Shown: positions 1-34,216, counted from the first letter of the stretch. The stretch: DNA of 64,000 nt from Nitrospirales bacterium (GCA_963555755.3 OY820905.2:768001-832000), one strand, 5' to 3'. Translations and numbers: made by a program. Notes: generated from the sequence alone by a model not told the origin.

Positions 1-1088
1 AACATCAGGAGCTCCTCTCGATCTTTCTGCAAACAGGCTGTGGCCTTGGGATATTTGAGCTCATAGGTGTTGAGGAATACATCAGCGGCTTGCTCCGCCA
101 ACCCTTTGGTCTCAGACCGCCAGATGTCTTGTAAGGCCTGCTTGGCTTTGGATTGCACACTTTTGGGCAGCGCATTTAAGACATTCTGTGTCTTGTGGCA
201 CCAACACCGTTGATGCCGCGTCACCGGGAAGATTTCTTCCAGGGCCGCCCAGAAGCCGAGGGCGCCATCCCCAACAGCCAAGGCGGGCGCGTTCAGCCCG
301 CGGGCTTTCAGATGCAACAGGACTTCCCGCCAACTTTGGGTGGACTCACGAATCCCGTCTTCCATCGCTAAGAGATGTTTCTCCCCGGAGGCATTCATGC
401 CGATCACGACCAATGCACCTAAGCGCTGCTCTTCAGCTCGTACGCCACGATAGATCCCATCGACCCAGATATAGACCCACTGGTCGGCATCGAATCGACG
501 GTGTCGCCAGAGGGTATACTCCTTCCGCCAGATCTGCTTGAGCCGAGCCACCGTACTGGCGGACAGCCCCTTGGCCTCTGGGCCCACGAGGACTTCCAGC
601 GCCGGTTGCATCTCTCCCGTCGAGATGCCTTTTACGTACAGCCATGGGATCGCCGCTTCTAAGCTAGCCGACTTGCGCACATACGGGGGGACCAGCGCCG
701 AGTGAAACGTGACCGGTTTGCCCTGGCGACTCCGTACTTTTGGGACTTGTACGGGCACCGGCCCAATGCCCGTCTGAATGTCGCGCGTCGGATGATGGCC
801 GCTGAGGACAACCCTCGCATGCCCCTGTTCCGTTGACTGGTCTGCATAGGTCGCCAAGAGCTCGGCCACCTCTGCTTTCAGGGCTTGGGCAAGAAGCTTC
901 TGCGCCCCTGTTCGAATCAACTCCGTCAGCGAATCGGTCCTTCCTCGATCTTCTTCCTCTGATTTGGTACATTCCTGCATCGTGGCGTCTCTCCTTTGTG
1001 GTTGTGGTGGATGTCTCGCAACACCCATTTCAACCCGAGACGCCGCGTGTTTTCAACTGATCCTAGACACTACTTTCAAGTATAACTC
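1..1088 (-). mobile_element. IS256-family element, runs off left edge of window (transposase <1..980)
   Basis: Near-identical reverse complement of the complete copy at 38967-40353; terminal IR AGACACTACTTTCAAGTATAACTC ends at 1088. Confidence 0.9.
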
Positions 1089-1159
1089 AAATACTTGTGA
1101 TATCCCTGATTATATTCTATCCTACATTCCGCACTTGAAAACGTGTATTTTTCTGCCCC

Positions 1160-2809
1160 TCATGTATCGCCTCTTTTTTTTGCGCCAAACTGCGGTTGAG
1201 GGATTTTGAGGAGTTGCAGCACTTGGTGCTGTGGCTCGGACCACTCATCCCAAAAGGTCCTCACCAGCTTGCCGTCACGAAGAATCTCGTACCTGCAGTG
1301 CTGGGCAAAGAGTCGCTGGACTTGTTCCCAGGTCGGGGTCGAGGTGGGTCGTTCCTCGGGGAGGGTTCGCAGGGTTCGAATACCGCTCTTCTCCATCGCA
1401 TGTCTGAGATCGCGCTGAATGAGGGCGGCCACGAGATCGGCGAGGTAGACCACGAGCATGAGGGCCTCGATGCGTTCGTTGTTCTTGAGGAACACCGGCG
1501 CCACCTGGAAGTCGGACTTGAGGCCGCTGAAGCGCTTCTCGATATGGGGCTGATACTTGTACGCCTCGAGGACCGCTTTGGCGGAGAGGGAGGTATTCGT
1601 GACCAGCGGAAAGATCCCATCGATGGCCTTGGCCCGAGCGAGCTGTTCCGGGTCTTGCTGGATCATGAGCTGCGGAATGTGTTTGACGGTGCGATGGTAG
1701 GTTGACGCGGGCGAGGGTTTGCCGCGGGCGGTCTGTGTGAAGGTTTCCTCCACGCGGTGGCTCACGGTCACCGTGAGCCACAGAGCCACCTGATACCTCG
1801 CGATGATCTGGTGGGCCTGCTTGAGTAACGAGCGCTCAGTTCGGCGCCCACGCGCTTTCTTCTCGTTGAGCGCCGCGAGTTTGTGCCGAGCGATCTCCAG
1901 CCGGTCCTTGCGGCGGCTGGCATCGCGATTTCTCTTCTCGGAGGAGCGATACCAATAGAGTCGAAACCCCTCCGCCAGCTGATACGCCTCGCTCGCGACC
2001 GAAAACACGTCAGACATCCCCCGCCTTCGAGTCGAGCGCTGGCGTAGGAGCGGGTCCCAGCGGACGGTCGCCTCGTAGCAGTCGGTGGCAAACGCGTGGG
2101 TTTCGGCCCGGGTCCGAGGGACGATGGTGACAAACCGACCGTGTTCCTGGTCAATGCGCCGCATGTTCGCGGTCGTGCATAATTTGGAGTCGGCGACGTA
2201 GAGGAACCCGGCCCCGCCCACCAAGCGGCGCAACGTCAGCCAATTCTCGATATGCAGGGTATCGTCGGTCTGATGGCCCGCATGGGTCTTGAAGTGAATC
2301 GGCACGGCTCCATCGCGAGCCATCGACAAGTTGTAGAGGAGCTGTTTCAGATCGGGACGATGATCCTTGCTGTGGCCCCGCGTGAGGTGGACCCCTTTGC
2401 GCGATTGCGCCGTGTACGCCCCCGAGAACTTGACGGAGGTGGAATCACTATGGATCTGGGAGACATCAATCGCGAACCGGGCAATGGCCACCAGCGTGAG
2501 GGTGGGCTGCACGGTCGCGCGATCTGCCTGGAACAACCGGTCGAGGGCCCGTCCCAGCCCAGCATCGGTGAGCGGCGCGGCTCCTCGCTCAATAGGGTCG
2601 AACTGCTGGGCCCAGGCTGGGACGCGGTAGAGCGCTGCCGGTTCGATCAGCAGGCTTTTGATGAGGAGCTCAATCGCCGCAGCGTACCGCGCCGAACAAA
2701 GAATGTCCTCCAGGCGGTGGCGCACCCCAAGCGTCGCGAAACAGCGATTGATGAGTGGGAGGGTCGCGATCCGTACCTTCCGATGCTGCAAATCTTTGGC
2801 TTGCATCAC
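1160..2809 (-). CDS. IS1634-family DDE transposase
   Basis: Motifs DSTSVKFSG, GHSKDHRPDLKQ, YVADSK, YKYQPHIEKRF. Confidence 0.9.
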   Translation of the reverse strand: MMQAKDLQHRKVRIATLPLINRCFATLGVRHRLEDILCSARYAAAIELLIKSLLIEPAALYRVPAWAQQFDPIERGAAPLTDAGLGRALDRLFQADRATVQPTLTLVAIARFAIDVSQIHSDSTSVKFSGAYTAQSRKGVHLTRGHSKDHRPDLKQLLYNLSMARDGAVPIHFKTHAGHQTDDTLHIENWLTLRRLVGGAGFLYVADSKLCTTANMRRIDQEHGRFVTIVPRTRAETHAFATDCYEATVRWDPLLRQRSTRRRGMSDVFSVASEAYQLAEGFRLYWYRSSEKRNRDASRRKDRLEIARHKLAALNEKKARGRRTERSLLKQAHQIIARYQVALWLTVTVSHRVEETFTQTARGKPSPASTYHRTVKHIPQLMIQQDPEQLARAKAIDGIFPLVTNTSLSAKAVLEAYKYQPHIEKRFSGLKSDFQVAPVFLKNNERIEALMLVVYLADLVAALIQRDLRHAMEKSGIRTLRTLPEERPTSTPTWEQVQRLFAQHCRYEILRDGKLVRTFWDEWSEPQHQVLQLLKIPQPQFGAKKRGDT

Positions 2810-2838
2810 GCCCTATCTTAATGCATAATAGCATTAAG

Positions 2839-3138
2839 ATGTCACGCGCAAAGATGATCCACCTCCGGGCGCCCGGACCCGTTCTGCCCGGGAGTGTGTC
2901 GACAGCAAGGGCGCGATGCGGCAAACAGACGTGCAAGTGTCGGGACGACCCGGCCCACCGACACGGGCCCTATTATCGCTGGACAGGCCTCATCGACGAA
3001 AAGAAGACCACGGTCACGCTCACGCAGGAGGAAGCCAGGGAGTGCGTACGACGGATTAAGAACTTCAAGAAACTGCAGGCGAAGCTGGCGACAGTGAGCA
3101 AGGAGGCGCTTGAAACCGCTCCGTGGACCCGGCGGTAA
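2839..3138 (+). CDS. DUF6788-like small Zn-binding protein inside IS1634
   Basis: GSVS..RCGKQTCKC..HGPYYRWT motif plus basic coiled C-terminus; start chosen at ATG 2839. Confidence 0.75.
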   Translation: MSRAKMIHLRAPGPVLPGSVSTARARCGKQTCKCRDDPAHRHGPYYRWTGLIDEKKTTVTLTQEEARECVRRIKNFKKLQAKLATVSKEALETAPWTRR

Positions 3139-3516
3139 GAGCTAGGCGCTGGACACCACTGGTGGGTTCCAGGTTAAATGCACGTTCTCAAGTGCGGAAT
3201 GTAGGTTCTATACATCCGGCTTCATTTATTTCGTGAAAATTTTTGTTATTCCTTAAATTAATAAATAATCAGATATCAGCCATCAGCGTTTTGGCTTTGG
3301 TAGCTATTGGAACCTTCGCCACCTGCGTTTATGCGGACGACTTCACTGTCAAGAGTGGCGAGACTGTGTCTACACAGATTCTCGACGGTGATGACAAAGG
3401 CGTGGTAGAAAAAGGCGGCGCTATAAAACCAACCAATAGTGGTGATAATGGCATTAACATAACCGGTAATGATAACACTGCGATCAACAACGGTTCTATC
3501 GAGACGGTGGGAGGCG

Positions 3517-5419
3517 CAGGGCCATTTCATTCTTTTTATAAGCAAGGGATTCCATGAGGTTTTTTGTGCCCTCTTTTTCAGGGCAGGGCCATGCGGATGG
3601 CTAAATGGGGCTTGCCCCAGAGCAGTCTACACGCCTGCGCGATATTGGTGTAGCCTTTCAGGCGTAAGAGACTGATGGCATAGCGTCTCAGACAGGTCAT
3701 GACCATTGGGCCATTGAGACTTCGTATCTGACTCCTGTCTTCATCAAAGGTGACGTCCAACACATAATGCTGCTTATTCTCCACACTCCAATGCTTTCGG
3801 TTTTGCGAGAGGATGGTCTTCGGCCCCGCCTTGTCTTTGGACTGACTCGTGACACCGCAGACCGCTTCGACGGTCGTGAGGCCCTGCTTGAGATGCGTCA
3901 CTTCCCTCTCAATGCAGAAGACTTGCTGGACATGAGGAAAGTTGACATAGGCATTCAGGGAGTCATCGCACCAGATCCTGCGGGTCGTGATCTGCCCATG
4001 GCCTTTCTCGGTGGTGGCATAATCGCACCGGCGTGCTCGCAACGCTAAGGCCTCAATGTCGTGCTTCAAGGTGGGCTGGTTTCCCTTGACGGTGAAGACG
4101 AAGTCGGCGCCGCGTTCGTGCACCAGGTACTCGGCAATCTCTTTCTGGGTGAGGAGCGCATCCGCCGTGATCACCTTCCCTGCGATCTCGAGCGCATCTA
4201 ACAGGGGCCGCACGCAGGGGATCTCATTGGTCTTGGAGTGAACTTTTTTTGGGTGAGGTGGCGCCCGGCTTGATGGGTGACGGCGCTGAGGACGTGGGCT
4301 GTTCGCTTGGGACCTTCGACGTCCCCCGCATGGTCTTCCCATCAATGGCAATGCCCTGATCCTCCCCGCCGAAGGTGTCCAGCCACCGGCCGAGCAGGGT
4401 ATCGACTTCACAGGGGTCGACGGCCGTGATAAAGCGGTAAAGAGTGCTGCGGCTCGGGACGAGGTAGCGCCCCCCTCGCTGAGTACAGCCTAGCCGCTTG
4501 CGCATCGGCTGCGATAACTGCTGGGCCCAGTCCGAGATCGCTTCATAGCCGCGCGCGCCGCACAAGGTGGCACAGAACATGATCGCCGTGAGGGCGCGTC
4601 GGGTGTGCCGTTGCCCTTGCAAATGGCGGGGATCGGTCAGCTGCACCACATACGTAAAGAGGGAGTCCGTCTGTTTTGTATTCAATCTCATCTGAGGCGC
4701 TTCTCCTTTCTGATAGGGCTGATCAAGCATCGGGCGTGCAAGGATCTCTCGGGCTTGGGGATGCAGCCGCACGACTAGGATGCGCTTCGGTCTCTCATGC
4801 TGAACATAACACGTGTTCGACTTGCGAAACCCTCGTGTCAGACCGAGCTCGTGCCACCCGGCGGCCCGATAGCAGGTCCCGGTGAAGCGGGCAGGATCGA
4901 CGAAGGTCTCTAAGAGGAGCAAGGGGTAGCCGTGGTACAGTTGCCAATCGGACGAGATCCGTTTCGCGCAGAGCGACAGGACTTTCGAGGCGAGGTTCTT
5001 TTGCGAACAGCCCGGCAGCATGAGAAACCGGGTGTTGTTGGCCAGTAAATGGAGTCGTTGCCATTGAAAACAGGGGGGCCAGCCGATCCAGTGGTCTCGC
5101 GGTCTCGATTTGAGGGCCGCCGCCGCAAACACCAGCAAGGCCAGCCAGCGATCCTGCACACAGGCGAGATATTGTATCGATTGGCCAATCAGCGGGGCAT
5201 GACCGAGGTAGTGGTGTCTGTCGAGAAGGGTCTTGAAGGCGTCCTTTTCGTCTCGGACAATTGGGCGAACCACGACTTGCCTCAGATCAATGTCCGGCTG
5301 TCCGCTTGGCGATTCGTCTGGCATGCAAAAGAGTATGCCGTAAACGAAAAGAAAAAGCCAGCCTAAATCGATTATTCCTTATTATCTATAAAGTTACACT
5401 TTAATATGAAATAGCCCTG
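3517..5419 (-). mobile_element. ISAs1-family element
   Basis: TIR CAGGGC(C/T)ATTTCAT; 10-bp TSD GTGGGAGGCG (3507-3516 / 5420-5429). Confidence 0.92.
3578..5324 (-). pseudogene. DUF4338 (DruA-like)-ISAs1 transposase fusion, frameshifted near 4240-4300
   Basis: N-term HHYLG..LANNTRFL..LETFVDP..GTCYRAAGW; ISAs1 motifs AIDGKT, KTNEIP, TADALLTQ, VKGNQ, HWSVEN split over frames. Confidence 0.8.
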
Positions 5420-5429
5420 GTGGGAGGCG

Positions 5430-6070
5430 ATGCCTATGGTATTAACTTATTCGAATCCGACAACAATACCATCAACAACGACGGTTCTATATCGACGACG
5501 GGTGCAAAAGCCCATGGTATTTACCTGACCGGCAACGACCCTAACGGCTCCGATGCCAATACAATTAACAACGACGGTTCTATATCGACGAAGGGTTTAG
5601 ATGCCAATGGTATTGGCTTATCTGAATCCGACAACAATACCATCAACAACGACGGTTCTATATCGACGAAGAATGAATTTTCCCTTGGTATTATATTGGT
5701 CAATTCCCACAACAATACCATCAACAACGACGGTTCTATATCGACGGATAATATAAATGTCACGATGAGAAATAGCGATGGTATTGGCTTATTCATTTCC
5801 AACTTCAATACCATCAACAACGACGGTTCTATATCGACGAAGGGTACAGCTTCCTATGGTATTTACTTATTCGATTCCGACTTCAATACCATCAACAACG
5901 ACGGTTCTATATCGACGAAGGGTATAGATGCCGTGGGTATTGGCTTAGACGAATCCAACAACAATACCATCAACAACAACGGTTCTATATTGCCGAAGGG
6001 TAAAGGTGCCTTTGGTATTGACTTACTCGATTCCCACAACAATACCATCAACAACGACGGAGATATCTTC
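5430..6070 (+). repeat. ~78-bp intragenic tandem repeats (8 units) of autotransporter copy 1
   Basis: Recurrent AATACCATCAACAACGACGGTTCTATATCGACG. Confidence 0.9.
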
Positions 6071-7407
6071 GTTAGTGGCGCTGGAATCTTTGCGCTTCGG
6101 GATAGGGGATCCGGTGACAATAATACCCTGAACCTGTATTCCCGTTCACGAATCATTGGCCGAATTGATTTTGGCGATGGAGTAGAGACGGTCAATTTCC
6201 ATTTCAAGAAAGCGGGTTTTTCTTCCACGTTGAGTTTTGAGAATACGGAGTCTATCAACCTGCATGACGATAATATGGTGAATGTGGGAGGCCTGACAGG
6301 AGTTTATTCGGTGGTTGATCCCACCGGTCAGTCAGTGAACGGAGCTGTTCTTGGTTCGATCACAAAAGATATCCATGGAATCCTGACCCGCCGTACGAGT
6401 CGGATGTCGAACACGAATCCCTCGCAACTGGCTTCGACCCGTGTGGAACCGGGAATGATGTCCTCTTCCCAAAAATCACAAGTCTGGGCGAGCGGTTTCG
6501 GCGCCCACCGTTCACGCGATGAAGATGGCCGTGTTCTCGCTTATGACCACGTTTATTACGGCGGCGTCGCCGGTTATGAAACGGCAACCCGTCAAGCGAG
6601 TATCGGCTTCATGGCGGGCTACGCTCAATCTGATGTAAGAACAGATTTAACCTCGATCAACACCGATAGCGAAAGTTATTTTGTCGGCGCTTATGGTCAG
6701 AAAAGATTCGCGAGCTTCAACCTGGACGCCTCTTTGCTCGCCGGTTACGAGCGCTATGACAACGACCGTATTGTGGTCGATAACCTGAATAAGTTTGAAA
6801 CTGCCGAGGCGGCTTATGACTCTTTTTTTCTAAGTCCGTCAGTCACTTTGAGTAGCGAAATCAGGGTATTCGACAAGATAGCGCTTCGTCCTTCAGTAAC
6901 CGGGATTTACAGCGTCGCATGGTATGACGATTACACCGAATCGGGCACAACCCGATCTAACCTGTCCATCGACGACCGATTCTCGCATGCCCTGATCGGA
7001 AAACTGCAAATTGCGGCGGCGTATGTGTTCAGCAATGGCAGCGAAATAGGGATTAGAGGAGGCGGCAGGTATCGCTATACGATCAATGATGATGTTGACG
7101 CCACATTAGCGGGAACGTCTTTTCGATATGCCGCGGCCGGAGACGACACTTACTTTGCAGCCATAGCGGGCGCCAATGCGCGCGTTGCGTTAATGGACAG
7201 TATCAACCTGACCGCCAATGCGGAATATGCATTCGACGATGGCATTGAAACCACCCTGTCAGGCCAACTCGTCCTTGAATTTATTGGCTCTTTAGCAGAA
7301 TCTTCGGCCTTGAATTTATTGGCTCTTCAGCAGAATCTGTGGGTGACTTGGTTCAAATAGAATAGAATAGGAATAGGGGTCAAATCTTTGAATTGAAATA
7401 GAATAGG

Positions 7408-7531
7408 GTAGAGTAGAACACTGGTGCTCACCTGGAGCTACTCTCGAACGCTTCGACGCACGCGTCTACAACGGACCACAGCAGTCAGCAATTCCCAGCG
7501 TCCCCTCATCAATCCGTGCATACAGTTTTCC
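7408..7531 (-). ncRNA. 3' remnant (half of domain V plus domain VI) of group II intron A
   Basis: Near-identical to 28872-28975 joined to 30970-30989; ends ...TTCTACTCTAC on minus strand. Confidence 0.85.
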
Positions 7532-9392
7532 CAAGCCGTTCACTTAATCTGTTGACACAAACCAGCAAACAGACATAAACAGCGCTTGTTTGCTGGCTTT
7601 CTTGTTTTGGATCATGCAGAAAAAATCTTCCGCAACTTCTACGCTGAAGCACCCTCGGATACCGCTCGAGTACGGTGGCTTCCAGATCAACCACTGCAAG
7701 TCTCCGGTCTGCTCGAACTACGGCGTTCCGCCAGAACACACATCGGTGCGTGGAAAAAATAGCTACACTCTGGATTCACGCAACCAAGGCATTTCATCCT
7801 GTATCTGCACGTCCTGCGGCGAAGGATTCCCTCTCAAGAGCAACCTCGGCATCGCAGAAGAAGTCGAGCGCATGTCGGCCTACCTGTCGCCTCGTGAGGT
7901 GGCGTTCTGCCGTAACGATGCCTGTACCAACCATACCGGTCAGGTGCCCGTAGGTACCGCCGGGGCATATGCCTCGTTCGGCAAGACCGCGATTGGCAGC
8001 CCCCGCTGGCGCTGTAGCGTCTGCGGTAAGACGTTCTCACAGAACACCAAGGCCACCGCCCGGCAGCGGGAACATCACAAGAACAAGACCATTTTCAAAC
8101 TGCTGGTCAACAAGCTGCCCGTGCGCCGAATCATCGAAGTCGCCGACATCCACCCCAAGACCTTCTACCACCGCCTCGACTTCCTCCATCGCCAGTGCCA
8201 ATCATTTGCCGCCCACCGCGAGCACGCCCTATCCACCCTCCCCATTCGGCGACTGTCCCTCGGCGTGGACCGGCAGGACTACCTTGTGAACTGGATGGTT
8301 CGCAAGGACAAGCGCAACATTCAGCTATCGGCCATTGCATCAGTGGACAACGAACACGGTTACGGCTTCGGTGTCCACCTTCACTTCGACCCTTCTCTGG
8401 ACAGCGAAGCTGTCCAAGCCGAAGTCGAGAAGAGCGGCGACCTTGGCATGCCCTATCCGCATCGTCGCGTTGCACGTCTGTGGCTCAATGCAGACCATGA
8501 GCGAGCCAGTGCCAAATCCCTACGCACTTCGCGGCGCAAACCCGGACTGCCAACGCAGATCGATGAAGCCTATGCCGCAGCATTGATGCGTGACGATATC
8601 GAAAGCCCCGATGCGCCGTCGCCCGTAGAACGACTTCCTGAATACGGGATGCAAACCCATGGCGAGTACACCATGTCTGGGCATTTTTTCTTCCTCAAAC
8701 GCCTGCTGGGCAATGTCCAAAAGTGGCGCTTCTTTATCGACCAAGACCCTGGACTGCGAGCCGCGTGCCTATCGGCGTTCCACGACGAGATCCGAGGCCG
8801 CACGGCGGAGGCCTTCTCTGTTCGCATCACCAAAGATCTGACGGTGGACGAAACGCGTCAAAAATACAACGAAGCGACGATGCTGTTCGTGCACGCAGAG
8901 CTCGCGCACCCAAAGATGAAGCCGCAGGAGGTCAAGTTGCTGCTGATCAAAGAGCGTCTGGCCTGTATGACGCCGCACGGGAAGTGGCAGGATCGGTGGC
9001 TTGACCATCCTTTCCCGACCATGAGCGAGCCAGAGAAGACAGTGGCCTCCCTCACCAATCTGGGCGACTACGACGAAGACCACAAAGCTTGGCTCTACAA
9101 CAAAGCGAGCGTGCATGGTGTCGATTCGTTCTTCAACCAAGTGCGTCGACGGCTCTCCCTGCTGGAGCGTCCGATCCATTCCAAATCCAACAATGGTCGG
9201 ATATGGAACGGATATTCTCCATATAACCCGGGTAATGTTGCAAAAGTACTCGACATCATGCGCACGGTGCATAACTACATCCTGACCGGCAAGGATGGCA
9301 AGACGCCAGCTGTGCGACTTGGATTGGCCCAAGCGCCGCTGGACTACGAAGCCATTATTTATTTTGCATCAACAGATTAAGTGAACGGCTTG
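7532..9392 (+). mobile_element. Unclassified IS (IS1/IS1595-like architecture) inserted in group II intron domain V
   Basis: Perfect 24-bp TIR CAAGCCGTTCACTTAATCTGTTGA; 9-bp flanks CAGTTTTCC / CAGTTCTCC. Confidence 0.88.
7614..9380 (+). CDS. Putative transposase with Zn-ribbon Cys pairs, HTH and RNase H-like region
   Basis: CKSPVC/CTSC/CRNDAC/CSVC; DRQD, FIDQD, C-terminal GKTPAVRLGLA; ORF fills the TIR-bounded unit and its stop lies in the right TIR. Confidence 0.75.
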   Translation: MQKKSSATSTLKHPRIPLEYGGFQINHCKSPVCSNYGVPPEHTSVRGKNSYTLDSRNQGISSCICTSCGEGFPLKSNLGIAEEVERMSAYLSPREVAFCRNDACTNHTGQVPVGTAGAYASFGKTAIGSPRWRCSVCGKTFSQNTKATARQREHHKNKTIFKLLVNKLPVRRIIEVADIHPKTFYHRLDFLHRQCQSFAAHREHALSTLPIRRLSLGVDRQDYLVNWMVRKDKRNIQLSAIASVDNEHGYGFGVHLHFDPSLDSEAVQAEVEKSGDLGMPYPHRRVARLWLNADHERASAKSLRTSRRKPGLPTQIDEAYAAALMRDDIESPDAPSPVERLPEYGMQTHGEYTMSGHFFFLKRLLGNVQKWRFFIDQDPGLRAACLSAFHDEIRGRTAEAFSVRITKDLTVDETRQKYNEATMLFVHAELAHPKMKPQEVKLLLIKERLACMTPHGKWQDRWLDHPFPTMSEPEKTVASLTNLGDYDEDHKAWLYNKASVHGVDSFFNQVRRRLSLLERPIHSKSNNGRIWNGYSPYNPGNVAKVLDIMRTVHNYILTGKDGKTPAVRLGLAQAPLDYEAIIYFASTD

Positions 9393-9512
9393 CAGTTCTC
9401 CCGCATACGGCTCTCCGGTCAGTAGGTTCCTATGGAGTGGACGAAACGAATATGGGCATCATTCAGGCTCGTGAACCCATGATCCGCAAAGAAGGCGGTC
9501 GGCCACCGTTCA
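9393..9512 (-). pseudogene. Remnant of a different group II intron: last codons of its RT/maturase plus 5' half of domain V
   Basis: Minus strand encodes ERWPTAFFADHGFTSLNDAHIRFVHSIGTY* followed by GGAGAGCCGTATGCGGGAGAACTG. Confidence 0.75.
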
Positions 9513-10378
9513 TGTGAGATTTCCTCGTGTTGTTTACAGTTTAAAGAAAAATGTTCGTAACTTTTCGTACGGCGTCATGTTGTCGATTCCCGCATGTGGT
9601 TTGACCGTATTATAGAAATTGACGAATCGGGCAAGGCCGAGTTTCCGGTCTTGTCGTGAAGGAAAAATCGTGGCGGCATGCCACATTTCCAAAAGCGTTT
9701 TGATCACACGCTCCGCCTTGCCAGTGGTCTGAGGGCGCCGGACCCGGGTAAAGTTCTGCCCCGTGCCGTTAGCCTTACACCTGGCCACGAACGCATGATC
9801 CGGGGTGCCTTTATATTCTGTGCCATTATCTGAATAGGCACATTCGATCGTGTAGGGGCATTCCTCGAGCACTTGCTCCAGGAACGTCGCCGCAGACGTT
9901 TGCGTTTTATCGGGCAGGATCGCCGCGTACAGCTCTCGTGAGAAATCGTCAATGGCCACGAACAGATGCTCCCGCGGGAGGGTTTGCTTCTCGCCTGCGA
10001 GCAACGGTAAACGTTTGGTGTCAAAGTGGAGCATCTCCCCGGGATAGCTTTTGTTGTAGCGCCGCGCGGCAAGTTTTAGCTTGCGCTCAAGAGCCTGCTC
10101 CACCTTGGCCAGGCGTTTCATCCCGTACTGTGCCTGCAAAAAGCGCTTGTTGGTGGATGGTCGAGGCGCAAATTCCTGTTTTCGCGCTCGGTCGATCACC
10201 TTGTAAATGGTCGGCCGAGAGACGCGGAATTGCTGCGCGAGCGCTACAACCGTCCACTGCCTCGTGCCATACAGTTGCCAGATCTCTTGTCGATCAAGCG
10301 GCGTTAACCGGGTTCTTTTGTGTATTGTCATGTCTACATCCTCGCAAAAAGATGTAAACAACGCTAGAAAAATTCACA
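9513..10378 (-). mobile_element. IS481-family element (transposase 9534-10361)
   Basis: TGT..ACA ends with ~26-bp imperfect TIR; HFDTK, AIDDFSR, SDNGTEY, GKAERVIKTL; no TSD. Confidence 0.9.
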
Positions 10379-23442: not shown

Positions 23443-23981
23443 TTACGCAACGGCACGCTCGACATCAAAGGCCACCTCATCGCGCATGAGGTAAAAACAC
23501 GCCCGGGCCAATTTATGGGCCACGGCCTTCAAGGCAATGAATACATTGGTCTTGGCCAGCTTGCGGTGGTAGTATCGGCGAATCTGTGGGTCGTGCCGCA
23601 TCGCAAAGTGGGCGGCTTCCACAAACGCCCAGGCTAAATATTTATTCCCATTCTTGGTGTTGCCCTTCCCCTTGCGTTTCCCCTTGCTGAGTGTGGTGCT
23701 GCTCACACACCGGCAGTACGAGGCAAACTGGCCCACCGTGGAGAACCGCCGCCTATCGCCCGTCTCTACCATGATGGTGCAGGCCAGGGGTTGGCCAAGT
23801 CCGGGGACGGTCTGCAAAAACCGAAACGCGGGCCGGAGGCGAACACGGGCTTTCACCGCCCGCTCGATCAGGGTAATCTGCTCGGCAAGGTGGTGCATCA
23901 CGGCCAGAGTCGCTTGCACGGCCATCGCATGTTCCGGCAGGGACACCCATTCGCTGATCGTCTCAGGCCGAAGTTGCTTGA

Positions 23982-24559
23982 AGGGTATACTCCTTCCGCC
24001 AGATCTGCTTGAGCCGAGCCACCGTACTGGCGGACAGCCCCTTGGCCTCTGGGCCCACGAGGACTTCCAGCGCCGGTTGCATCTCTCCCGTCGAGATGCC
24101 TTGTAAGTACAGCCATGGGATCGCCGCTTCCAAGCTAGCCGACTTGCGCACATACGGGGGGACCAGCGCCGAGTGAAACGTGACCGGTTTGCCCTGGCGA
24201 CTCCGTACTTTTGGGACTTGTACGGGCACCGGCCCAATGCCCGTCTGAATGTCGCGCGTCGGCTGATGGCCGCTGAGGACAACCCTCGCATGCCCCTGTT
24301 CCGTTGACTGGTCTGCATAGGTCGCCAAGAGCTCGGCCACCTCCGCTTTCAGGGCTTGGGCAAGAAGCTTCTGCGCCCCTGTTCGAATCAACTCCGTCAG
24401 CGAATCGGTCCTTCCTCGATCTTCTTCCTCTGATTTGGTACATTCCTGCATCGTGGCGTCTCTCCTTTGTGGTTGTGGTGGATGTCTCGCAACACCCATT
24501 TCAACCCGAGACGCCGCGTGTTTTCAACTGATCCTAGACACTACTTTCAAGTATAACTC
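23982..24559 (-). mobile_element. IS256 5' fragment (start of duplicated block)
   Basis: Matches 511-1088; fused directly to the IS110 fragment. Confidence 0.9.
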
Positions 24560-24591
24560 AAATACTTGTGATATCCCTGATTATATTCTAT

Positions 24592-26676
24592 CCTACATTC
24601 CGCACTTGAAAACGTGTATTTTTCTGCCCCTCATGTATCGCCTCTTTTTTTTGCGCCACACTGCGGTTGAGGGATTTTGAGGAGTTGCAGCACTTGGTGC
24701 TGTGGCTCGGACCACTCATCCCAAAAGGTCCTCACCACCTTGCCGTCACGAAGAATCTCGTACCTGCAGTGCTGGGCAAAGAGTCGCTGGACTTGTTCCC
24801 AGGTCGGGGTCGAGGTGGGTCGTTCCTCGGGGAGGGTTCGCAGGGTTCGAATACCGCTCTTCTCCATCGCATGTCTGAGATCGCGCTGAATGAGGGCGGC
24901 CACGAGATCGGCGAGGTAGACCACGAGCATGAGGGCCTCGATGCGTTCGTTGTTCTTGAGGAACACCGGCGCCACCTGGAAGTCGGACTTGAGGCCGCTG
25001 AAGCGCTTCTCGATATGGGGCTGATACTTGTACGCCTCGAGGACCGCTTTGGCGGAGAGGGAGGTATTCGTGACCAGCGGAAAGATCCCATCGATGGCCT
25101 TGGCCCGAGCGAGCTGTTCCGGGTCTTGCTGGATCATGAGCTGCGGAATGTGTTTGACGGTGCGATGGTAGGTTGACGCGGGCGAGGGTTTGCCGCGGGC
25201 GGTCTGTGTGAAGGTTTCCTCCACGCGGTGGCTCACGGTCACCGTGAGCCACAGAGCCACCTGATACCTCGCGATGATCTGGTGGGCCTGCTTGAGTAAC
25301 GAGCGCTCGGTTCGGCGCCCACGCGCTTTCTTCTCGTTGAGCGCCGCGAGTTTGTGCCGAGCGATCTCCAGCCGGTCCTTGCGGCGGCTGGCATCGCGCT
25401 TTCGCTTCTCGGAGGAGCGATACCAATAGAGTCGAAACCCCTCCGCCAGCTGATACGCCTCGCTCGCGACCGAAAACACGTCAGACATCCCCCGCCTTCG
25501 AGTCGAGCGCTGGCGTAGGAGCGGGTCCCAGCGGACGGTCGCCTCGTAGCAGTCGGTGGCAAACGCGTGGGTTTCGGCCCGGGTCCGAGGGACGATGGTG
25601 ACAAACCGACCGTGTTCCTGGTCAATGCGCCGCATGTTGGCCGTCGTGCATAATTTGGAGTCGGCGACGTAGAGGAACCCGGCCCCGCCCACCAAGCGGC
25701 GCAACGTCAGCCAATTCTCGATATGCAGGGTATCGTCCGTCTGATGGCCCGCATGGGTCTTGAAGTGAATCGGCACGGCTCCATCGCGAGCCATCGACAA
25801 GTGGTAGCGGAGCTGTTTCAGATCGGGACGATGATCCTTGCTGTGGCCCCGCGTGAGGTGGACCCCTTTGCGCGATTGCGCCGCGTACGCCCCCGAGAAC
25901 TTGACGGAGGTGGAATCACTATGGATCTGGGAGACATCAATCGCGAACCGGTCAATGGCCGCCAGCGTGAGGGTGGGCTGCAACGTTGCGCGATCAGCCT
26001 GGAATAACCTGTCGAGGGCCCGTCCCAGCCCAGCATCGGTGAGCGGCGCGGCTCCTCGCTCAATCGGGTCGAACTGCTGGGCCCAGGCTGGGACGCGGTA
26101 GAGCGCTGCCGGTTCGATCAGCAGGCTTTTGATGAGGAGCTCAATCGCCGCAGCGTACCGCGCCGAACGAAGAATGTCCTCCAGGCGGTGGCGCACCCCA
26201 AGCGTCGCGAAACAGCGATTGATGAGTGGGAGGGTCGCGATCCGTACCTTCCGATGCTGCAAATCTTTGGCTTGCATCACGCCCTATCTTAATGCATAAT
26301 AGCATTAAGATGTCACGCGTAAAGATGATCCACCTCAGATCGCCCGGACCCGTTCTGCCCGGGAGTGTGTCGACCGCAAGGGCGCGATGCGGCAAACAGA
26401 CGTGCAAGTGTCGGGACGACCCGGCCCACCGACACGGGCCCTATTATCGCTGGACAGGCCTCATCGACGAAAAGAAGACCACGGTCACGCTCACGCAGGA
26501 GGAAGCCAGGGAGTGCGTACGACGGATTAAGAACTTCAAGAAACTGCAGGCGAAGCTGGCGACAGTGAGCAAGGAGGCGCTTGAAACCGCTCCGTGGACC
26601 CGGCGGTAAGAGCTAGGCGCTGGACACCACTGGTGGGTTCCAGGTTAAATGCACGTTCTCAAGTGCGGAATGTAGG
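24592..26676 (-). mobile_element. IS1634-family element, copy 2 (transposase 24631-26280; DUF6788-like 26310-26609 on +)
   Basis: Same TIRs, same TTCTAT TSD and same flanks as 1121-3205. Confidence 0.92.
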
Positions 26677-26713
26677 TTCTATACATCCGGCTTCATTTAT
26701 TTCGTGAAAATTT

Positions 26714-28823
26714 TTGTTATTCCTTAAATTAATAAATAATCAGGTATCAGCCATCAGCGTTTTGGCTTTGCTTGCTATTGGAACCTTCGCCACCTGCGTT
26801 TATGCGGGCGGCTTCACTGTCAAGAGCGGCGAGACTGTGATGATTACACAGGAACTCGACGGTGATGACAAAGGCGTGGTAGAAAAAGGCGGCGCTATAA
26901 AACCAACCAATAGTGGTGATAATGGCATTAACATAACCGGTAATGATAACACTGCGATCAACAACGGTTCTATCGAGACGGTGGGAGGCGCAGGGCCATG
27001 GTATTCACTTATTCGAATCCGACAACAACACCATCAACAACGACGGTTCTATAGAGACGATGGGTCACAGGGCCTTTGGCATTTACTTAGACGAATCCCT
27101 CAACAATGCCATCAACAACAACGGTTCTATAGAGACGGAGGTACGAGGTGCTTCTGGCATTTACTTAGACAAATCCCTCAACAATACCGTCAACAACAAC
27201 GGTTCTATAGAGACGATGGGAGACTTTGCCTCTGGCATTTCCTTATCCGGTTCCACCACCAATACCATCAACAACAACGGTTCTATAAAGACGGTGGGAA
27301 AAGACTCCTATGGCATTTCCTTATCAGCTTTCACCACTAATACCGTCAACAACAACGGTTCTATAGAGACGATGGGAGAAGGTGCCCATGGCATTTTATT
27401 ATTCGCTTCCGACACCAATAATACCATCAACAACAACGGTTCTATAAAGACGATGGGAGAAGGTGCCCATGGCATTTTCTTATTTTTTTCCGATGCCAAT
27501 ACCATCAATAACGACGGAGATATCTTTGTTACTGGCGTTGACAGCTTTGCTGTTTTGGATGATGGAAACAAGCAGAATAAAAACAATACCCTAAACCTGT
27601 TTTCCCGTTCGCGAATCATTGGCCGAATTGATTTTGGCGATGGAGTAGATACGGTCAATTTCCATTTCAAGAAAGCGGGTTTTTCTTCCACGTTGAGTTT
27701 TGAGAATACGGAGTCTATCAACCTGCATGACGACAATATGGTGAATGTGGGAGGCCTGACAGGAGTTTATTCGGTGGTTGATCCCACCGGTCAGTCAGTG
27801 AACGGAGCTGTTCTTGGTTCGATCACAAAAGATATCCATGGAATCCTGACCCGCCGTACGAGTCGGATGTCGAACACGAATCCCTCGCAACTGGCTTCGA
27901 CCCGTGTGGAACCGGGAATGATGTCCTCTTCCCAAAAATCACAAGTCTGGGCGAGCGGTTTCGGCGCCCACCGTTCACGCGATGAAGATGGCCGTGTTCT
28001 CGCTTATGACCACGTTTATTACGGCGGCGTCGCCGGTTATGAAACGGCAACCCGTCAAGCGAGTATCGGCTTCATGGCGGGCTACGCTCAATCTGATGTA
28101 AGAACAGATTTAACCTCGATCAACACCGATAGCGAAAGTTATTTTGTCGGCGCTTATGGTCAGAAAAGATTCGCGAGCTTCAACCTGGACGCCTCTTTGC
28201 TCGCCGGTTACGAGCGCTATGACAACGACCGTATTGTGGTCGATAACCTGAATAAGTTTGAAACTGCCGAGGCGGCTTATGACTCTTTTTTTCTAAGTCC
28301 GTCAGTCACTTTGAGTAGCGAAATCAGGGTATTCGACAAGATAGCGCTTCGTCCTTCAGTAACCGGGATTTACAGCGTCGCATGGTATGACGATTACACC
28401 GAATCGGGCACAACCCGATCTAACCTGTCCATCGACGACCGATTCTCGCATGCCCTGATCGGAAAACTGCAAATTGCGGCGGCGTATGTGTTCAGCAATG
28501 GCAGCGAAATAGGGATTAGAGGAGGCGGCAGGTATCGCTATACGATCAATGATGATGTTGACACCACATTAGCGGGAACGTCTTTTCGATATGCCGCGGC
28601 CGGAGACGACACTTACTTTGCAGCCATAGCGGGCGCCAATGCGCGCGTTGCGTTAATGGACAGTATCAACCTGACCGCCAATGCGGAATATGCATTCGAC
28701 GATGGCATTGAAACCACCCTGTCAGGCCAACTCGTCCTTGAATTTATTGGCTCTTTAGCAGAATCTTCGGCCTTGAATTTATTGGCTCTTCAGCAGAATC
28801 TGTGGGTGACTTGGTTCAAATAG
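26714..28823 (+). pseudogene. Autotransporter copy 2, +1 frameshift at ~26995
   Basis: Leader in ORF 26714, remainder in ORF 26943; 7 NT(I/V)NNNGSI repeats; barrel near-identical to copy 1. Confidence 0.85.
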
Positions 28824-28975
28824 AATAGAATAGGAATAGGGGTCAAATCTTTGAATTGAAATAGAAATAGGGTAGAGTAGAACACTGGTGCTCACCTGGA
28901 GCTACTCTCGAACGCTTCGACGCACGCGTCTACAACGGACCACAGCAGTCAGCCATTCCCAGCGTCCCCTCATCA

Positions 28976-30969
28976 GTAGGGTCGAGGACTGGCGCGCCAA
29001 CGGTAGGGTTCGGTGGCTCCTCCACCCCTTTCGGAATGGGCCTCAGTCCGACTCCCCTGGTCACGGTTCCAGTCCCCGCCACCTCAAACCCGGCGTGCTG
29101 ATTTCCAGCACCGGGCTTTCCTGGATGCTTCACCTCAAGGGTTATGTGACCTATCAGCCTGGAAGGACTTTCATGCCGACCCGTTGTACCGCACTCGGTA
29201 ATCTCCATATAAGCCAAGTACCGTGTAGAGCCAAACCTTACTCCACCTCTTCCAGCCAAAACCTCGACGGTGGCGCACTCGCATCATGTGCCGCCGGACC
29301 TTCCGCTCCACCCAATCCTTCACGTAGGATAAACACCGACTCGCATGCCCAATCCGGAAGTAGTTCACCCAGCCCCGTACGATCGGATTGATCATGGCGA
29401 TCATCCGTCCCACCGGCTGGGATTGCCCGCGTCGGAACACTTCCTTGAGCTTCCGCAGCAACGCGGTGCGCCGCTTCACCTTCGGTATGTACTGCGGGCG
29501 CCACACTCCACGCCGCGACCGCACACGCCGAAAGTCAAAGCCCAGAAAGCCGAAGCTGCCTCCCTGACTCAGGTCCACGATTCGGCTCTTCTCCTCATTC
29601 ACCTGAAGGTCTAATTGGGCCAACGCCTCTCGCAGCTTCCGCTCCGCAACCTGCGCCAGTTGTGCGTGGCGGCGATAGCCATCCACTAACACGACGAGGT
29701 CATCCGCAAACCGGACATACTCGAGATACGTATACTGGCCCTGCCGGGTTGTCTCCTTCAGCTGCTCCAGCCTCTCATCCACTTCCGTGAGATAGAGGTT
29801 GGCCAGCAGCGGGGAAATCACACCCCCTTGAGGCACCCCACGCGGGCCGGACGCCTTGACGATGAGTTTCACCAGCCGCAGGATCGCGGGATCCTGGATG
29901 CGTCGGGCCACCTTCGCCAGCAGCCGGTCATGCCGCACCGTGTCGAAGAAGGCCGCCAGATCCACATCAATCACTCGCGTCTTGTTCTGCACCATCGCCT
30001 GAGCCACCCGGCCAATCGCCTGGTGGGCTGTCCGTTTCGGTCGATACCCATACGACCCATCACGAAAATCCGCCTCAAAGATCGGTTCCAGCAGGAGCTT
30101 GAGCGCTCCCTGTACCACGCGGTCCCGAATCGCGGGTATCCCTAAGACGCGGACTCGTCCACCGCCTTTCGAAATCTCCACGTGCCGGTTCCGCATCGGT
30201 CGGTAGGTCTGCGTGACCAGTTCGTCCCGTAGTCGTGCAAGAAAGGGCTCCACCCCCGTGGCCTCGATGCCAGCAAACGTCACCCCATCAATGCCGGGGG
30301 CTCCGTTGTTTTTCTTGGCCATCGAATAGGCCGCGCGTAGCGTCGCCTCTTTGCACACGTGGACGTACAGGCCCCACACCCGCCATCGCTTCTCAGCCTT
30401 CGCCTTGACGTAGAGCCGCTGTCGCAGGTCTTGCAGTGTAATGGACGCCGTTGTCATCTCGTCCCTGCCTCCCATGTTGATCACAGCCTACAGCCAGTAG
30501 GGCTCCTTTGCTCCACAGGCATGACCCTGCTTCCTCGCTCCTACGAGCCCCTCCGCCACCCTCTCGTCTTCGGCTCACTTCCCAGAGAGCTGGTTATAGA
30601 GCCGATCTTCCTCCAGGGATTTCTCCCTGGGACGAGGAGGGCTTCTCCAGTTGCGTCGTCTGTCCTTGCTCCCGTGCTGTCGCTCTCACCCCGCCGGAGT
30701 GGCCAGGCGTCTCAGCCTTGGTTCGCCTGTCCATGCCGTCTTCGTCCTACGGACAGGGACTCGACCTCCGAGGTTTCATACTTTCGAGGCTACCTCTGCG
30801 TTCACTTTCGTTACGGCCCGGGAACTCGCTCACCATCCTCTACGATGGCTTTGTCGATGGGCTTCAGCGTCTCGGTTTCTCTCCACGCTGCCATCCAAGC
30901 TACAGGGCTCAGGCTCTTACCCTGGTGGGCTTGCTTCCCACTGAACAGTCTCGCCTTACCTGGACACAC
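28976..30969 (-). mobile_element. Group II intron C, inserted in domain V of intron A
   Basis: 5' GTGTGTCC, 3' ..GACCCTAC; empty site present at 7511/7512; EBS1 GTCCGT (30749-30754) pairs with ACGGAT. Confidence 0.92.
29171..30484 (-). CDS. ltrA: Group II intron RT/maturase of intron C (class E-like)
   Basis: [44 protein letters not shown]; no endonuclease domain. Confidence 0.92.
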   Translation of the reverse strand: MINMGGRDEMTTASITLQDLRQRLYVKAKAEKRWRVWGLYVHVCKEATLRAAYSMAKKNNGAPGIDGVTFAGIEATGVEPFLARLRDELVTQTYRPMRNRHVEISKGGGRVRVLGIPAIRDRVVQGALKLLLEPIFEADFRDGSYGYRPKRTAHQAIGRVAQAMVQNKTRVIDVDLAAFFDTVRHDRLLAKVARRIQDPAILRLVKLIVKASGPRGVPQGGVISPLLANLYLTEVDERLEQLKETTRQGQYTYLEYVRFADDLVVLVDGYRRHAQLAQVAERKLREALAQLDLQVNEEKSRIVDLSQGGSFGFLGFDFRRVRSRRGVWRPQYIPKVKRRTALLRKLKEVFRRGQSQPVGRMIAMINPIVRGWVNYFRIGHASRCLSYVKDWVERKVRRHMMRVRHRRGFGWKRWSKVWLYTVLGLYGDYRVRYNGSA

Positions 30970-31015
30970 ATCCGTGCGTACAGTTTTCCCGTACACGGCT
31001 TTCCGATGTTCTTCG

Positions 31016-34000
31016 TCAGAACGCATGCGCCCGTTTCCAGCCAGCTATCGTGGGAAGCTTGAACAAGCCGTATCGAGCATAGAGCATGGCCGTGGGAAAC
31101 TGCGCATACCCTGCCGCCCGGCTTTTCACCTTGTGCCGTTTGCGGAGGTGCGCGCGCAGTCGCTCTTCCACATGCCATTTCACTCGACCCAAGCCCTTGG
31201 AGCTCTTGCGGTAGTGGAAATAGCCCGCCCACCCGCGCACGTACTGGTTGAGCGTCGCCACCACATCAGGGAGCGGAATCGGGGTCCCACCACGAGCCGT
31301 CATCTGTGTCACTCGTGCTTTCGCCCGCTGGATGGATCGGAGGGACGGCTCCACGTGCGGGTAGACTTTCCCGCTCGTGCGTCCCGTCCGGAGACCAAAG
31401 GAAAACCCGAGAAAGTCAAACCGTTCCTGCCTGGCGTTGACTTCCCTGGTTTTCTCCTCATTGAGGCTCAGCCCCAATCCCTCCAGCAAGTGGTGGAGGA
31501 CCGTCATTGACGGAGCCACCTCCCCCGCACAAAGCACCACCAGTCGAGTCGCCCCGAGGAACCACCCCTCGAGGCGCTCACAGAACCGGACGTGAACGTC
31601 TCCGCTCATCCGGCTCTTCTTATCTAGCCTGTCCATACACCAACCGCCAGTGAGCAAACAGATTGGGCTGCCGACACGCAATGCGTCGCAACCACTGATC
31701 GGCTCGCCGTTTGTGGCCTCGCAGCCGCTTGAACTTGCGAGTGGCCCACAGCACAAGTTTGCGATCGATGTGCCGGAGGGACCGGTACAACGCCGATTGG
31801 TAGAAGGCACTGTAATAGGTCACCCACCCGCGTATCTTCGCATTGAACATCCGCGCCAGATCGTCGAGCGCTTTATCGCTCCGCAGATGGAGCTGCCAGC
31901 TCCGCACGACCTGGCGGATCGCCTTCCCCGCCTTATTACTGATGGCCGGACTGAAGTTGATGAAGTATTTCCCCCACCGGTTCTTCGACCGCCGTGGGCG
32001 AAACGTGTAGCCCAAGAAGTCGAAGGCGGTGATTGGATACCCCAGACGCCGATCGGCATCTTTGCAGTATACAATCTGGGTCTTCTCCGAATGGAGTTCA
32101 AGCCCCCAATCCGCAAAGCGCCGCGCTAACGCCCCTTTCAGATGTTCGGCCTGTTTCCGGGTGCGACAGTGACACACCCCATCGTCGGCATACCGCTCAA
32201 ACGGGATGTGCGGATAGTACCGCCTCATCCACGCATCGAAGACATAATGCAGAAACAGGTTCGCCAGCAACGGACTGACGACACCCCCTTGCGGCGTGCC
32301 TCGGGTCCGCTCCCGCACCGTCCCGTCCAACACTTGCTCCGGAGCTTTCAACCATCGCTCGATATAGAGCAGCACCCACGTAGCTTGGGTATGCCGACGC
32401 ACCATGGCCAGCAGCCGGTCATGGTCGATGGTGTCGAAGAACCCTTTGATGTCAAGGTCCACCACCCAGTCATAGCGCCAACACCGCCTGCGCGCCTGCC
32501 CAATCGCTTGATGCGCTGATTTCCCCGGTCGGTAGCCATAGGAATCCGGGTGAAAGTGGGCTTCCACTTCCGGTTCCAGGGCCTGTTTGACCACTGTTTG
32601 CGCAATCCGGTCTGCCACGGTCGGGATCCCCAACGGACGGCTGCCGCCGCCTGCCTTGGGAATCTCCACCCGCTTGACCGGCAGGGGCCGATAACTCCCA
32701 GAGGCCATCCGGTTCCAGAGCTTATAGAGGTTGTTGTCCAACCTCTGCTCAAAGTCCGCCACCGTCTGGCCATCCACCCCAGCCCCACCCTGATTGGCTT
32801 TCACTCGTTTGTAGGCTTCCCACACCTGACGTTGGGTAATGGGAAATGGCTTGGCCTGAGTCACGAAAGTCCTCCCATCGCTGGTTGCTCTCTTCCCTCA
32901 AGCCCGATAAGGCAACCCCTTCGCTCCAGCTCCATTACAGAACCTTCTTCACTACTACGAGTTGCTCCGCCCCTGTACCCCGCCTCGGTACTCTCACGCT
33001 TGTGGGACCTCCACTTGCGTTTCTCCCTTCGCATCGGGGTGACAGGTTCCCACGTTCTCCACAAGAGCCTGGACCGCCTTCTCGCCGCCTTCATGCCGGA
33101 CGCCATCTGGCCAGTAACCAGGTGCCCGCCAGATTCCTCCCGGAGTAACGATCCCCCCCCGGTTTTGACGTCATCCCTACGCTTTCGACACGTCCTCAGC
33201 GGTTCACTCACGTTCGACTCGACGGTCCATACCTGACAGGGTCTTGCCCTGCCTTTTCCCATTGCGCTCACCACCACCTCTCTTAAAGGCAGCAGCCATG
33301 GGTGGTTTGAAGCCTCCGCCTGTACAGCGACTTCGAGGGGCCTCCCCTCATCTCTTGTGCAGCATGGCTGCACAAAGGACTGACGTCCTTTTGTGCGCCT
33401 TCGTGGCGCACGATCATCGGCATACCGCACGATCTTGGCTCGGAGAGAGCGTCCAACCTCTGGACGGGCCCAGCTCCGATCCACCTCATGCAAGTACACG
33501 TTCGCCAAGAGCGGGGAAATCACGCCGCCCTGGGGTGTACCCTTCCGAGAGCCTTTGCCCCCACTCACGCGCGTCGTTCCGTGTCCAGCTTCCTCAACCA
33601 CTGACACCGTTAGCCATTGCTTGATGAGGCCTAAGACGGCCCCATCCGCAATCCGTTTCGCCACGGTGGCCATCAGTTTGGCATGGGGAATGCTGTCGAA
33701 ATACTGGGACAGGTCGGCATCAAGGACAGAGCCGTACCCCGCGTGCAGCGCTGTGGCCACCGCATCCGCCGCATCATGGGCAGACCGCTGTGGACGAAAC
33801 CCATACGAGGTCTCGCAAAAGTCCGCCTCGAAGATCGGCTCAATGACCAGCTTGACGGCCATCTGCGCCACTCGATCGGTGATGGTCGGAATCCCGAGGG
33901 GCCGGTGACCCCCATCAGGTTTGGGGCGCCACACCCGTCGCACCGCTTGTGCGCGATACCGCTTACTCTTCAGCTCGGCTTGCAGCTTCCTGAGAAATGC

Positions 34001-34216
34001 TTCTCTCCCTTCTTCCGCGTCGATGGCCTCCCACGTGCGCCCGTCTATTCCAGGTGCCCCGTGGTGGGACCGGACCAAGGCATAGGCATGACTCAGAATG
34101 TCCGCCTGGGTGACCTTGTCGTACAACGCATAGAAGCGAAAGCCAGATTCAGACTTGGTCTTCCGATACAGCTTCCTCTGTAGTGTCCTGATCGTACTTG
34201 GGGTTGATAGCGCCAT
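31016..34216 (-). CDS. ltrA: Group II intron RT/maturase of intron A, split by intron B (33412-34216 + 31016-31542)
   Basis: Joined exons are in frame (1332 nt) and read ..[23 protein letters not shown]. Confidence 0.9.
31543..33411 (-). mobile_element. Group II intron B, inserted right after the YADD codons of intron A RT
   Basis: 5' GTGCGCC, 3' ..GACTCGAC; domain V GAGCCGGATGAGCGGAGACGTTCACGTCCGGTTC; EBS1 GATCGTT (33147-33153) pairs with GATGATC. Confidence 0.93.
31620..32864 (-). CDS. ltrA: Group II intron RT/maturase of intron B (class D-like)
   Basis: [41 protein letters not shown]. Confidence 0.93.

Follow-up and report, generated by a model that had tools for sequence, protein, structure and literature searches.

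Few DNA transposons are target-specific, and the targets known so far are host repeats, recombination sites and the ends of other transposons. The group II intron RmInt1 reportedly homes into the insertion sequence (IS) ISRm2011-2. Group II introns are also found inside other introns, as twintrons (PMC4424553). Among site-preferring ISs, the REP-targeting IS1397, ISKpn1 and ISRm22 insert at a symmetry axis, and the transposase is responsible for this choice in IS1397 and ISKpn1 (PMC1525189). The ISAjo2 group of IS1202, which targets dif, illustrates a one-protein IS choosing a dispersed motif in an oriented manner (PMC10132070), and IS110/IS1111 elements are RNA-guided, which is a different chemistry (PMC11187229, PMC11208160). 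Tn7491 is a dfrG transposon of staphylococci, enterococci and Listeria, with TIRs of about 27 bp and a 9-bp duplication; the accessible part of its description gives it neither a family assignment nor a target preference (PMC10763498).

This work concerns an element found in the window, i.e. the whole stretch of 64,000 nucleotides that was analysed, from a Nitrospirales bacterium. Its TIRs, fixed 9-bp duplication, RNase H-fold transposase and dispersed copies are those of a DDE-type IS. This DDE-fold IS, from an unclassified Tn7491-related family, prefers the domain V (DV) loop of group II introns, and we consider it likely that it does so by way of a symmetric target in duplex DNA.

The element in the window and its copies in the genome

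The features of the locus, numbered along the window, are the following.

7406..7510, minus strand: domain VI and 3' end of intron A; exon position same as that of the intron at 28872
7511..7522, minus strand: 3' arm of intron A domain V (bulge and lower stem)
7523..7531, minus strand: 9-bp target core of intron A DV (upper stem and loop), left flank, CAGTTTTCC
7532..9392, plus strand: insertion sequence, 1861 bp; four genome copies, 8-18 differences between copies
7532..7555, plus strand: left TIR, 24 bp
7614..9380, plus strand: transposase, 588 aa, with a Cys-rich N-terminus, an IS1-like Zn finger and HTH, and an RNase H-fold core
9369..9392, minus strand: right TIR, 24 bp, equal to the left TIR
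9393..9401, minus strand: 9-bp target core of intron R DV, right flank, CAGTTCTCC, one mismatch versus the left core
9402..9415, minus strand: 5' arm of intron R domain V, with AGC catalytic triad
9416..9512, minus strand: final codons of the intron R maturase, with the stop at 9419-9421; the neighbouring element cuts off the rest
9513..10378, minus strand: IS481-type element (rve core, 26-bp imperfect inverted ends), truncating intron R
28872..31003, minus strand: reference 3' region of intron A, in the duplicated locus

The preliminary description had placed a 1861-bp element with perfect 24-bp TIRs at the DV loop, and this was confirmed, the element occupying 7532-9392 and the two TIRs being identical over 24 nt with a first mismatch at base 25. 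ATG 7614 is most likely the start of the transposase, since its homologues measure 584-589 aa. The left flank, read earlier as intron A, indeed differs from the reference at 1 of 104 bases (7408-7511 versus 28872-28975) and at 1 of 20 bases (7512-7531 versus 30970-30989). The reference DV (30970-31003) is free of the IS, and a second intron (28976-30969) is inserted directly behind it. As a continuous stretch, the left flank best matches the uninterrupted end of an intron at C1:228317-228443 (97.6% over 127 nt), and the 3' end of intron A maps to about 7406. The right flank (9393-9512) belongs to a different intron, as had been proposed: just 3 of 121 nt separate it from intron family R (C1:1007688, 4586877), and this intron differs from intron A both in its DV 5' arm and in its maturase tail (ending in HSIGTY-stop versus RAHAF-stop). 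The two 9-bp flanks thus occupy the equivalent position, upper stem and loop, in the DVs of A and R. Contigs from public runs bridge the left junction (X1, possibly the source sample, record 4, 7460-9351) and the right junction (X8, record 30, 8882-9506), and no single contig crosses the whole locus among the public-run pieces listed. In the RNA run X8, the element is covered piecewise at a depth of 3-10, without joints, by contigs that are no readout of expression or splicing.

The surroundings are themselves rich in mobile DNA. A segment with a DDE transposase, an autotransporter gene and the 3' end of intron A is present twice, at approximately 500-7511 and 23980-28975 of the window, and its left copy holds an extra 1.9-kb multicopy IS at 3512-5419. 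In the region 28872-34700, three or more group II introns that encode an RT are nested in one another, and one of them splits the RT gene of another directly behind the YADD codons (33409).

The genome contains four copies of the element, 99-100% identical and dispersed over different sites, and all four lie in intron DV, at one register and in both orientations. Copies 3 (C1:1251115) and 4 (3058590), oppositely oriented, each interrupt a different intron family as a simple insertion flanked by a perfect 9-bp duplication; copy 2, at 1024325, lies in intron R, has an 8/9 duplication and carries a nested 754-bp element. Intact empty alleles were found above the RF00029 cut-off at C1:4586855 (56.9 bits) and 3676911 (50 bits). 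When the strongest four DV 5' arms devoid of a 3' arm were located in the genome, this IS followed in 4/4, and the ends of five other multicopy ISs of this genome were at DV in 0/82 cases. A genome-wide scan for orphan 3' arms, at a low threshold, returned mostly noise.

Because the other copies are DV insertions, intact alleles exist and the ends of the five other ISs are absent from DV, the window copy is a secondary junction of two insertions at the same register, which joins the 3' arm of intron A to the 5' arm of intron R. This is in line with the two attacks on one DV register postulated beforehand. Copies of ISs that lack matching duplications are usually explained, in the part of the literature available, by inter-copy recombination or adjacent deletion (PMC11708052), and the window hybrid may have arisen through either. 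SNPs among the four copies violate the four-gamete rule (left part of copy 1 as in copy 2, right part as in copy 4), so that exchange between copies did happen; the SNP pattern names no parents for the window copy. A single insertion with a mutated duplication, placed in DV by chance, would also account for two 9-mers that differ at one base only, and copy 2 is such a case, with 8/9 within intron R. However, the window flanks come from two intron families with different maturase tails and different domain VI, no natural uninterrupted intron with this hybrid DV is present among the 35 RF00029 matches of the genome, and the hybrid DV folds poorly (-2.2 versus about -8 to -10 kcal/mol). We give this explanation virtually no credit, and the chance position in DV is refuted by the copies and flanks that share the DV register.

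Another parasite was observed in the same region. A group II intron of approximately 15 copies inserts directly behind the DV 3' arm of other introns (window 28976-30969; C1:1022311-1024304; others). IS copies 2 and 3 lie in DVs that also bear this intron about 10 nt downstream, and the two parasites therefore share the DV region.

Insertion sites in other genomes and the target motif

Flanks were then collected elsewhere. A GTDB scan yielded 15 loci, and 7/13 close-clade elements with a visible end were in DV, as read by eye; a metagenome scan by TIR pattern, blind to flanks, yielded at least 137 stretches. Flanks shorter than 32 nt (e.g. L006, L020, L036) and exact duplicates were removed before counting (180 ends reduced to 145), which left, among the matches listed, 6 flanks from this genome, 21 from GTDB and 118 from metagenomes. 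DV halves were scored with our own matrices, derived from 12 intact DVs (99.5% null, 45 offsets), because Rfam cannot see split DVs: Rfam scans of 15 and 20 loci reported D1-D4 families and tRNAs only. Among the matches listed, 57 of the 145 distinct flanks passed the DV-arm score, the junction being exactly 9 nt from the arm in 54, and 55 were accepted as DV. Outside this genome this represents 49/139 flanks of the matches listed, for about 1% expected, or 32/118 after 85% collapse (one borderline); these figures are not event counts, since an insertion can contribute both of its ends and hosts that are related cannot be taken as independent, and the DV share may be inflated by intron-rich hosts and by assembly breaks at repeats, surviving copies being moreover filtered by selection. 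The other 90/139 flanks outside this genome, again among the matches listed, are outside DV.

The targeted DVs are diverse. Among the matches listed, clustering at 80% distinguished 14 5' arms and 19 3' arms; the 3' arms continue into DVI-like hairpins, both orientations occur, and the catalytic-triad position of the 5' arms reads AGC in 19, AAC in 5 and AGA in 1 of 25. An RT match pointing to the junction was present in 7/21 of the listed 5'-arm flanks with 280 or more bases, and in 1/76 of the listed non-DV flanks, this one being itself the partner end of a DV insertion. Exact duplications, all of 9 bp, were found in 21 of the 33 two-ended elements among the matches listed, and none in 12.

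The enrichment test on flanks, set beforehand, thus gave DV at the same register in this genome, in GTDB and in metagenomes, and the insertions considered here do not have unrelated flanks. Of the specialisation for DV claimed initially, a strong preference at one register stands and exclusivity does not. DV is a preference of the transposase, not an obligation; identical transposases within one genome were indeed found in DV (L008) and outside it (L007).

The search for further copies had several other outcomes. No copy was found in those searched of forty related genomes; a phylum sample of 400 gave sister-clade matches (44-50%) and Zn-finger noise only, the TIR pattern of the DV clade had no match in five genomes from this phylum-sample work, and viral contigs gave one sister-clade locus. 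A non-autonomous family of 162-196 bp, with the same TIRs and 9-bp duplication, is represented by L018, L022, L026-L029, L063, L076, L077, L106, L114, L130 and L139. In L024 (72-1966), the outward flank is identical at both ends, at a DV 3' end, with CCG still at -18; it is either an inversion or an assembly artefact and was excluded from the motif set. In L143 (301-500), two elements of the same family lie side by side with one target core between them.

The non-DV flanks, from which borderline DV or other-register flanks had been excluded, share a motif. In the 81 such flanks among the matches listed, A-n-CCG-n-A is followed by a symmetric 9-bp core, with A at -20 in 39/81, C at -18 in 53/81, C at -17 in 55/81 and G at -16 in 47/81, then A at -14, S at -9 and -1, and the core S-G-R-W-W-W-Y-C-S. 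A palindromic 33-position matrix, constructed from non-DV flanks alone and excluding those of this genome, ranked intact DVs 0-6 out of 4.6 million positions in this genome and placed two clean empty sites both at rank 1. It predicts 23% of insertions on the 37 listed DVs, versus 8e-6 under uniformity. Without DV-like and RT-linked flanks (72 left), DV ranked 0-4, and a control matrix taken 40 nt further out gave ranks of 1.5-4.5 million. The 15 copies of the commonest intron of this genome (score about 9, rank 42-83) hold no insertion.

Since non-DV flanks share the motif and their matrix ranks DVs at the top, the transposase likely reads a 33-bp DNA pseudo-palindrome, matched by 5-nt-loop DVs, rather than an RNA hairpin. 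The target would consist of A-n-CCG-n-A-n4, then the duplicated 9-bp core, then the mirror arm, and the preference for the DV loop would be due to the binding of two-fold symmetric duplex DNA, to which the 33-nt, 5-nt-loop DV may offer a better match than almost any other genomic DNA. A transposase dimer would read both CCG/CGG arms directly, without RNA or host factor. All two-sided DV sites indeed have a 9-bp spacer (33-nt DV, 5-nt loop), and 34-nt DVs were rarely targeted (2 cases among the matches listed, L127 and L083), so that the early view of DV in general as the target has to be narrowed mainly to the 33-nt type. By our own reading, 14/15 intact resolved DVs in four other genomes are of 34 nt; a 5-nt DV loop is described, in the part consulted, as a trait of classes IIE and IIF (PMC3753933).

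Could a generic preference for GC-rich palindromes, rather than an adaptation to introns, suffice, with a coincidental DV match and purifying selection against other insertions? Approximately two thirds of the flanks among the matches listed are outside DV, and Tn5 and REP-targeting ISs are reported to prefer palindromic targets in which GC pairs mark the ends of the duplication (PMC1525189). The TIR begins with AAGCCG, resembling the DV arm, a likeness that we dropped as evidence since it is too short to count. However, a motif free of DV reproduces the arm spacing and core of DV and places DV at the top of 4.6 million positions, sister clades are devoid of this motif (half-site scores of -6 to 1.7 versus a mean of 3.5), and selection alone hardly explains a fixed 9-nt register. 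A merely generic preference is therefore improbable.

Recognition of an extruded hairpin or cruciform, at forks, in R-loops or during intron reverse transcription, would make DV and terminators targets by virtue of their structure. DV is itself a hairpin, the sister-clade loci L013 and L152 lie in perfect terminator hairpins, L007 and L014 are hairpin sites, and symmetry in the two-sided non-DV sites slightly exceeds that of randomly paired arms (4.8 versus 3.8 of 12, P ~0.045, n=10), so that a hairpin or cruciform may contribute. Yet non-DV flanks hold CCG at a fixed distance and fold weakly (8/10 of the two-sided sites weaker than -8 kcal/mol), the duplication in DV has its centre on the CCG/CGG axis and is shifted by 1 nt from the centre of the RNA loop, and 34-nt DVs, which are equally good hairpins, are rarely used; the duplication is centred in L013 but off-centre in L152. 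We regard structure recognition as unlikely, although less so than the generic preference.

Guidance by a partner, either the intron RNP or maturase or an RNA encoded by the element, has precedents in the RNA-guided IS110/IS1111 (PMC11187229, PMC11208160) and in the contact with XerC suggested for the ISAjo2 group (PMC10132070). It appears very improbable here: non-coding DNA around the ORF amounts to just 82 bp in 5' and 12 bp in 3', TIRs included (some relatives have longer 3' stretches), derivatives of 162-196 bp with unlike interiors (L029, L106, L130) reach the same DV spot, insertions occur in both orientations, unlike the oriented ones of ISAjo2, and the motif holds at intron-free sites. 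Direct reading of duplex DNA thus remains our preferred explanation.

The transposase family and the fate of invaded introns

No Pfam or NCBIfam family scored above cut-off for the transposase, and sequence searches of Pfam and PDB gave Zn-finger matches only. Homologues numbered 606 among scored candidates, and the family comprises 687 representatives (50%-clusters) at E < 1e-30, which provides a family and a proposed mechanism for the unassigned transposase of Tn7491. An AF2 model (pLDDT 87) matched the folds of ISCth4 (Z 12.4), Tn5 (Z 10.8), Hermes and integrases. D219 is conserved in 118/118 sequences, position 376 is D in 113/118, and position 504 is D in 98/118 and N in 17/118. R511, seven residues after D504, is invariant, and both fit the third catalytic position; a DDD/DDN triad is thus predicted, with D219, D376 and, deduced from this fit, D504. 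As a single-protein transposase with a long palindromic target, this enzyme constitutes a subject for structural study. Some distant family members (P0143, P0169, P0234) have a C-terminal DEDDh/DnaQ-type exonuclease domain fused.

In a quick tree, without bootstrap, all DV insertions fall within one clade (at least 70% identity, SH-aLRT 100), mixed with non-DV sites, and none of eleven rows from the sister clade (ten rows, 44-50%) and Tn7491 is in DV (0/11). Sister-clade rows often lie, as judged by eye, in or beside terminator-like A-run/GC palindromes (L013, L152, L153, L155, L175, L176, L196, L203). In several of them no right TIR lies close to the transposase gene, as would be expected of compound transposons that carry passenger genes; in L153 and L154, AAA-domain and methylase genes follow the transposase. 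The preference for DV would have arisen in one clade, its relatives using other sites, often such palindromes; from these few loci, it is plausible that terminator-like sites were exchanged for DV. The family may thus offer a natural case of target switching.

With regard to the intron, DV contains the catalytic triad (PMC4424553, part consulted). The insertion keeps the triad and the bulge and takes the place of the terminal loop, so that invaded introns have likely lost splicing. It would remove the zeta-prime loop, and splicing and homing would then probably be inactivated. In the window copy, domains I-IV and most of the RT are gone, and the intron therefore cannot splice in cis. In copies 3 and 4, the predicted folds show paired TIRs and a preserved lower stem of DV. 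No sign was found of IS-bearing introns still moving, and a search for any one intron that carries the IS at more than one exon, which would point to co-mobility, gave nothing decisive.

Introns may represent a self-multiplying, mostly non-essential landing pad. One clade may well have evolved a DNA-binding code for a ribozyme DV and become, with a likely DDD triad, a dedicated hyperparasite culling retroelements, a reading to which we give slightly better than even credence. In its boldest version, some invaded introns would splice and carry the IS along, because the paired TIRs would extrude the element while triad, bulge and lower stem still fold. In any event, one genetic parasite uses, and probably disables, another, which offers an explanation, open to testing, of why group II introns of bacteria are found broken. 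Intron surveys based on DV would miss such introns because the motif is split.

Relation to described elements

An IS with a preference for DV had been presumed undescribed, and no report was indeed found in the freely accessible articles searched. The closest named element is Tn7491, whose large ORF is a full-length homologue of the transposase (HHalign 100%, E 1e-39, 530 columns, 24% identity). Its TIRs and 9-bp duplication were confirmed on L156, and the start of its TIR is related to that of the window element. By contrast, Tn7491 is 3.3 kb long with passenger genes, has N at the third catalytic position, and its single site examined is outside DV.

Likeness to IS1/IS1595 resides in the Zn finger and HTH (NF033558 E 1e-7; HHalign 85% to an InsA) and in the 9-bp duplication, and the nearest named Atlas clusters are DDE_Tnp_IS1 (0.88) and IS240 (0.87). 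The profile scores for the IS1 family nevertheless fell short: NF033558 gave 31.8 bits for a cut-off of 100 and Pfam DDE_Tnp_IS1 did not match. HHalign of the core to InsB gave no match with one 93-aa InsB sequence, a single short template. The window transposase differs from those of IS1/IS1595 by being a single 588-aa ORF with large insertions, and the element ends with CAAG, unlike IS1, whose ends are GG. A 9-bp duplication is typical of IS256. The IS256/Mutator-like ISCth4, which also has an RNase H core with insertions, is the best structural match (Foldseek E 9e-4; rmsd 4.0, 246 aligned), but identity is 10-11%, Tn5 follows close behind, and IS256 NCBIfam models remain far below their cut-offs.

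In terms of target choice, the REP- and dif-targeting ISs, as far as the available parts of their descriptions go, resemble the window element as one-protein transposons using a fixed point of a dispersed palindromic motif. Their transposases are unrelated, they target a host repeat or a recombination site, and the window element inserts in both orientations. In the homing of introns into ISs and in twintrons, as partially documented, one mobile element is likewise the renewable landing site of another; here, by contrast, the IS invades the intron, in a DNA-protein based manner, and is not spliceable out. Compared with these systems, DV adds a new class to the targets of DDE insertion sequences that prefer certain sites, and does so in a family that is related to Tn7491 and uncharacterised. 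No part of this ribozyme retroelement is more conserved than DV, which is hit with base-pair precision in many intron families and several bacterial groups.
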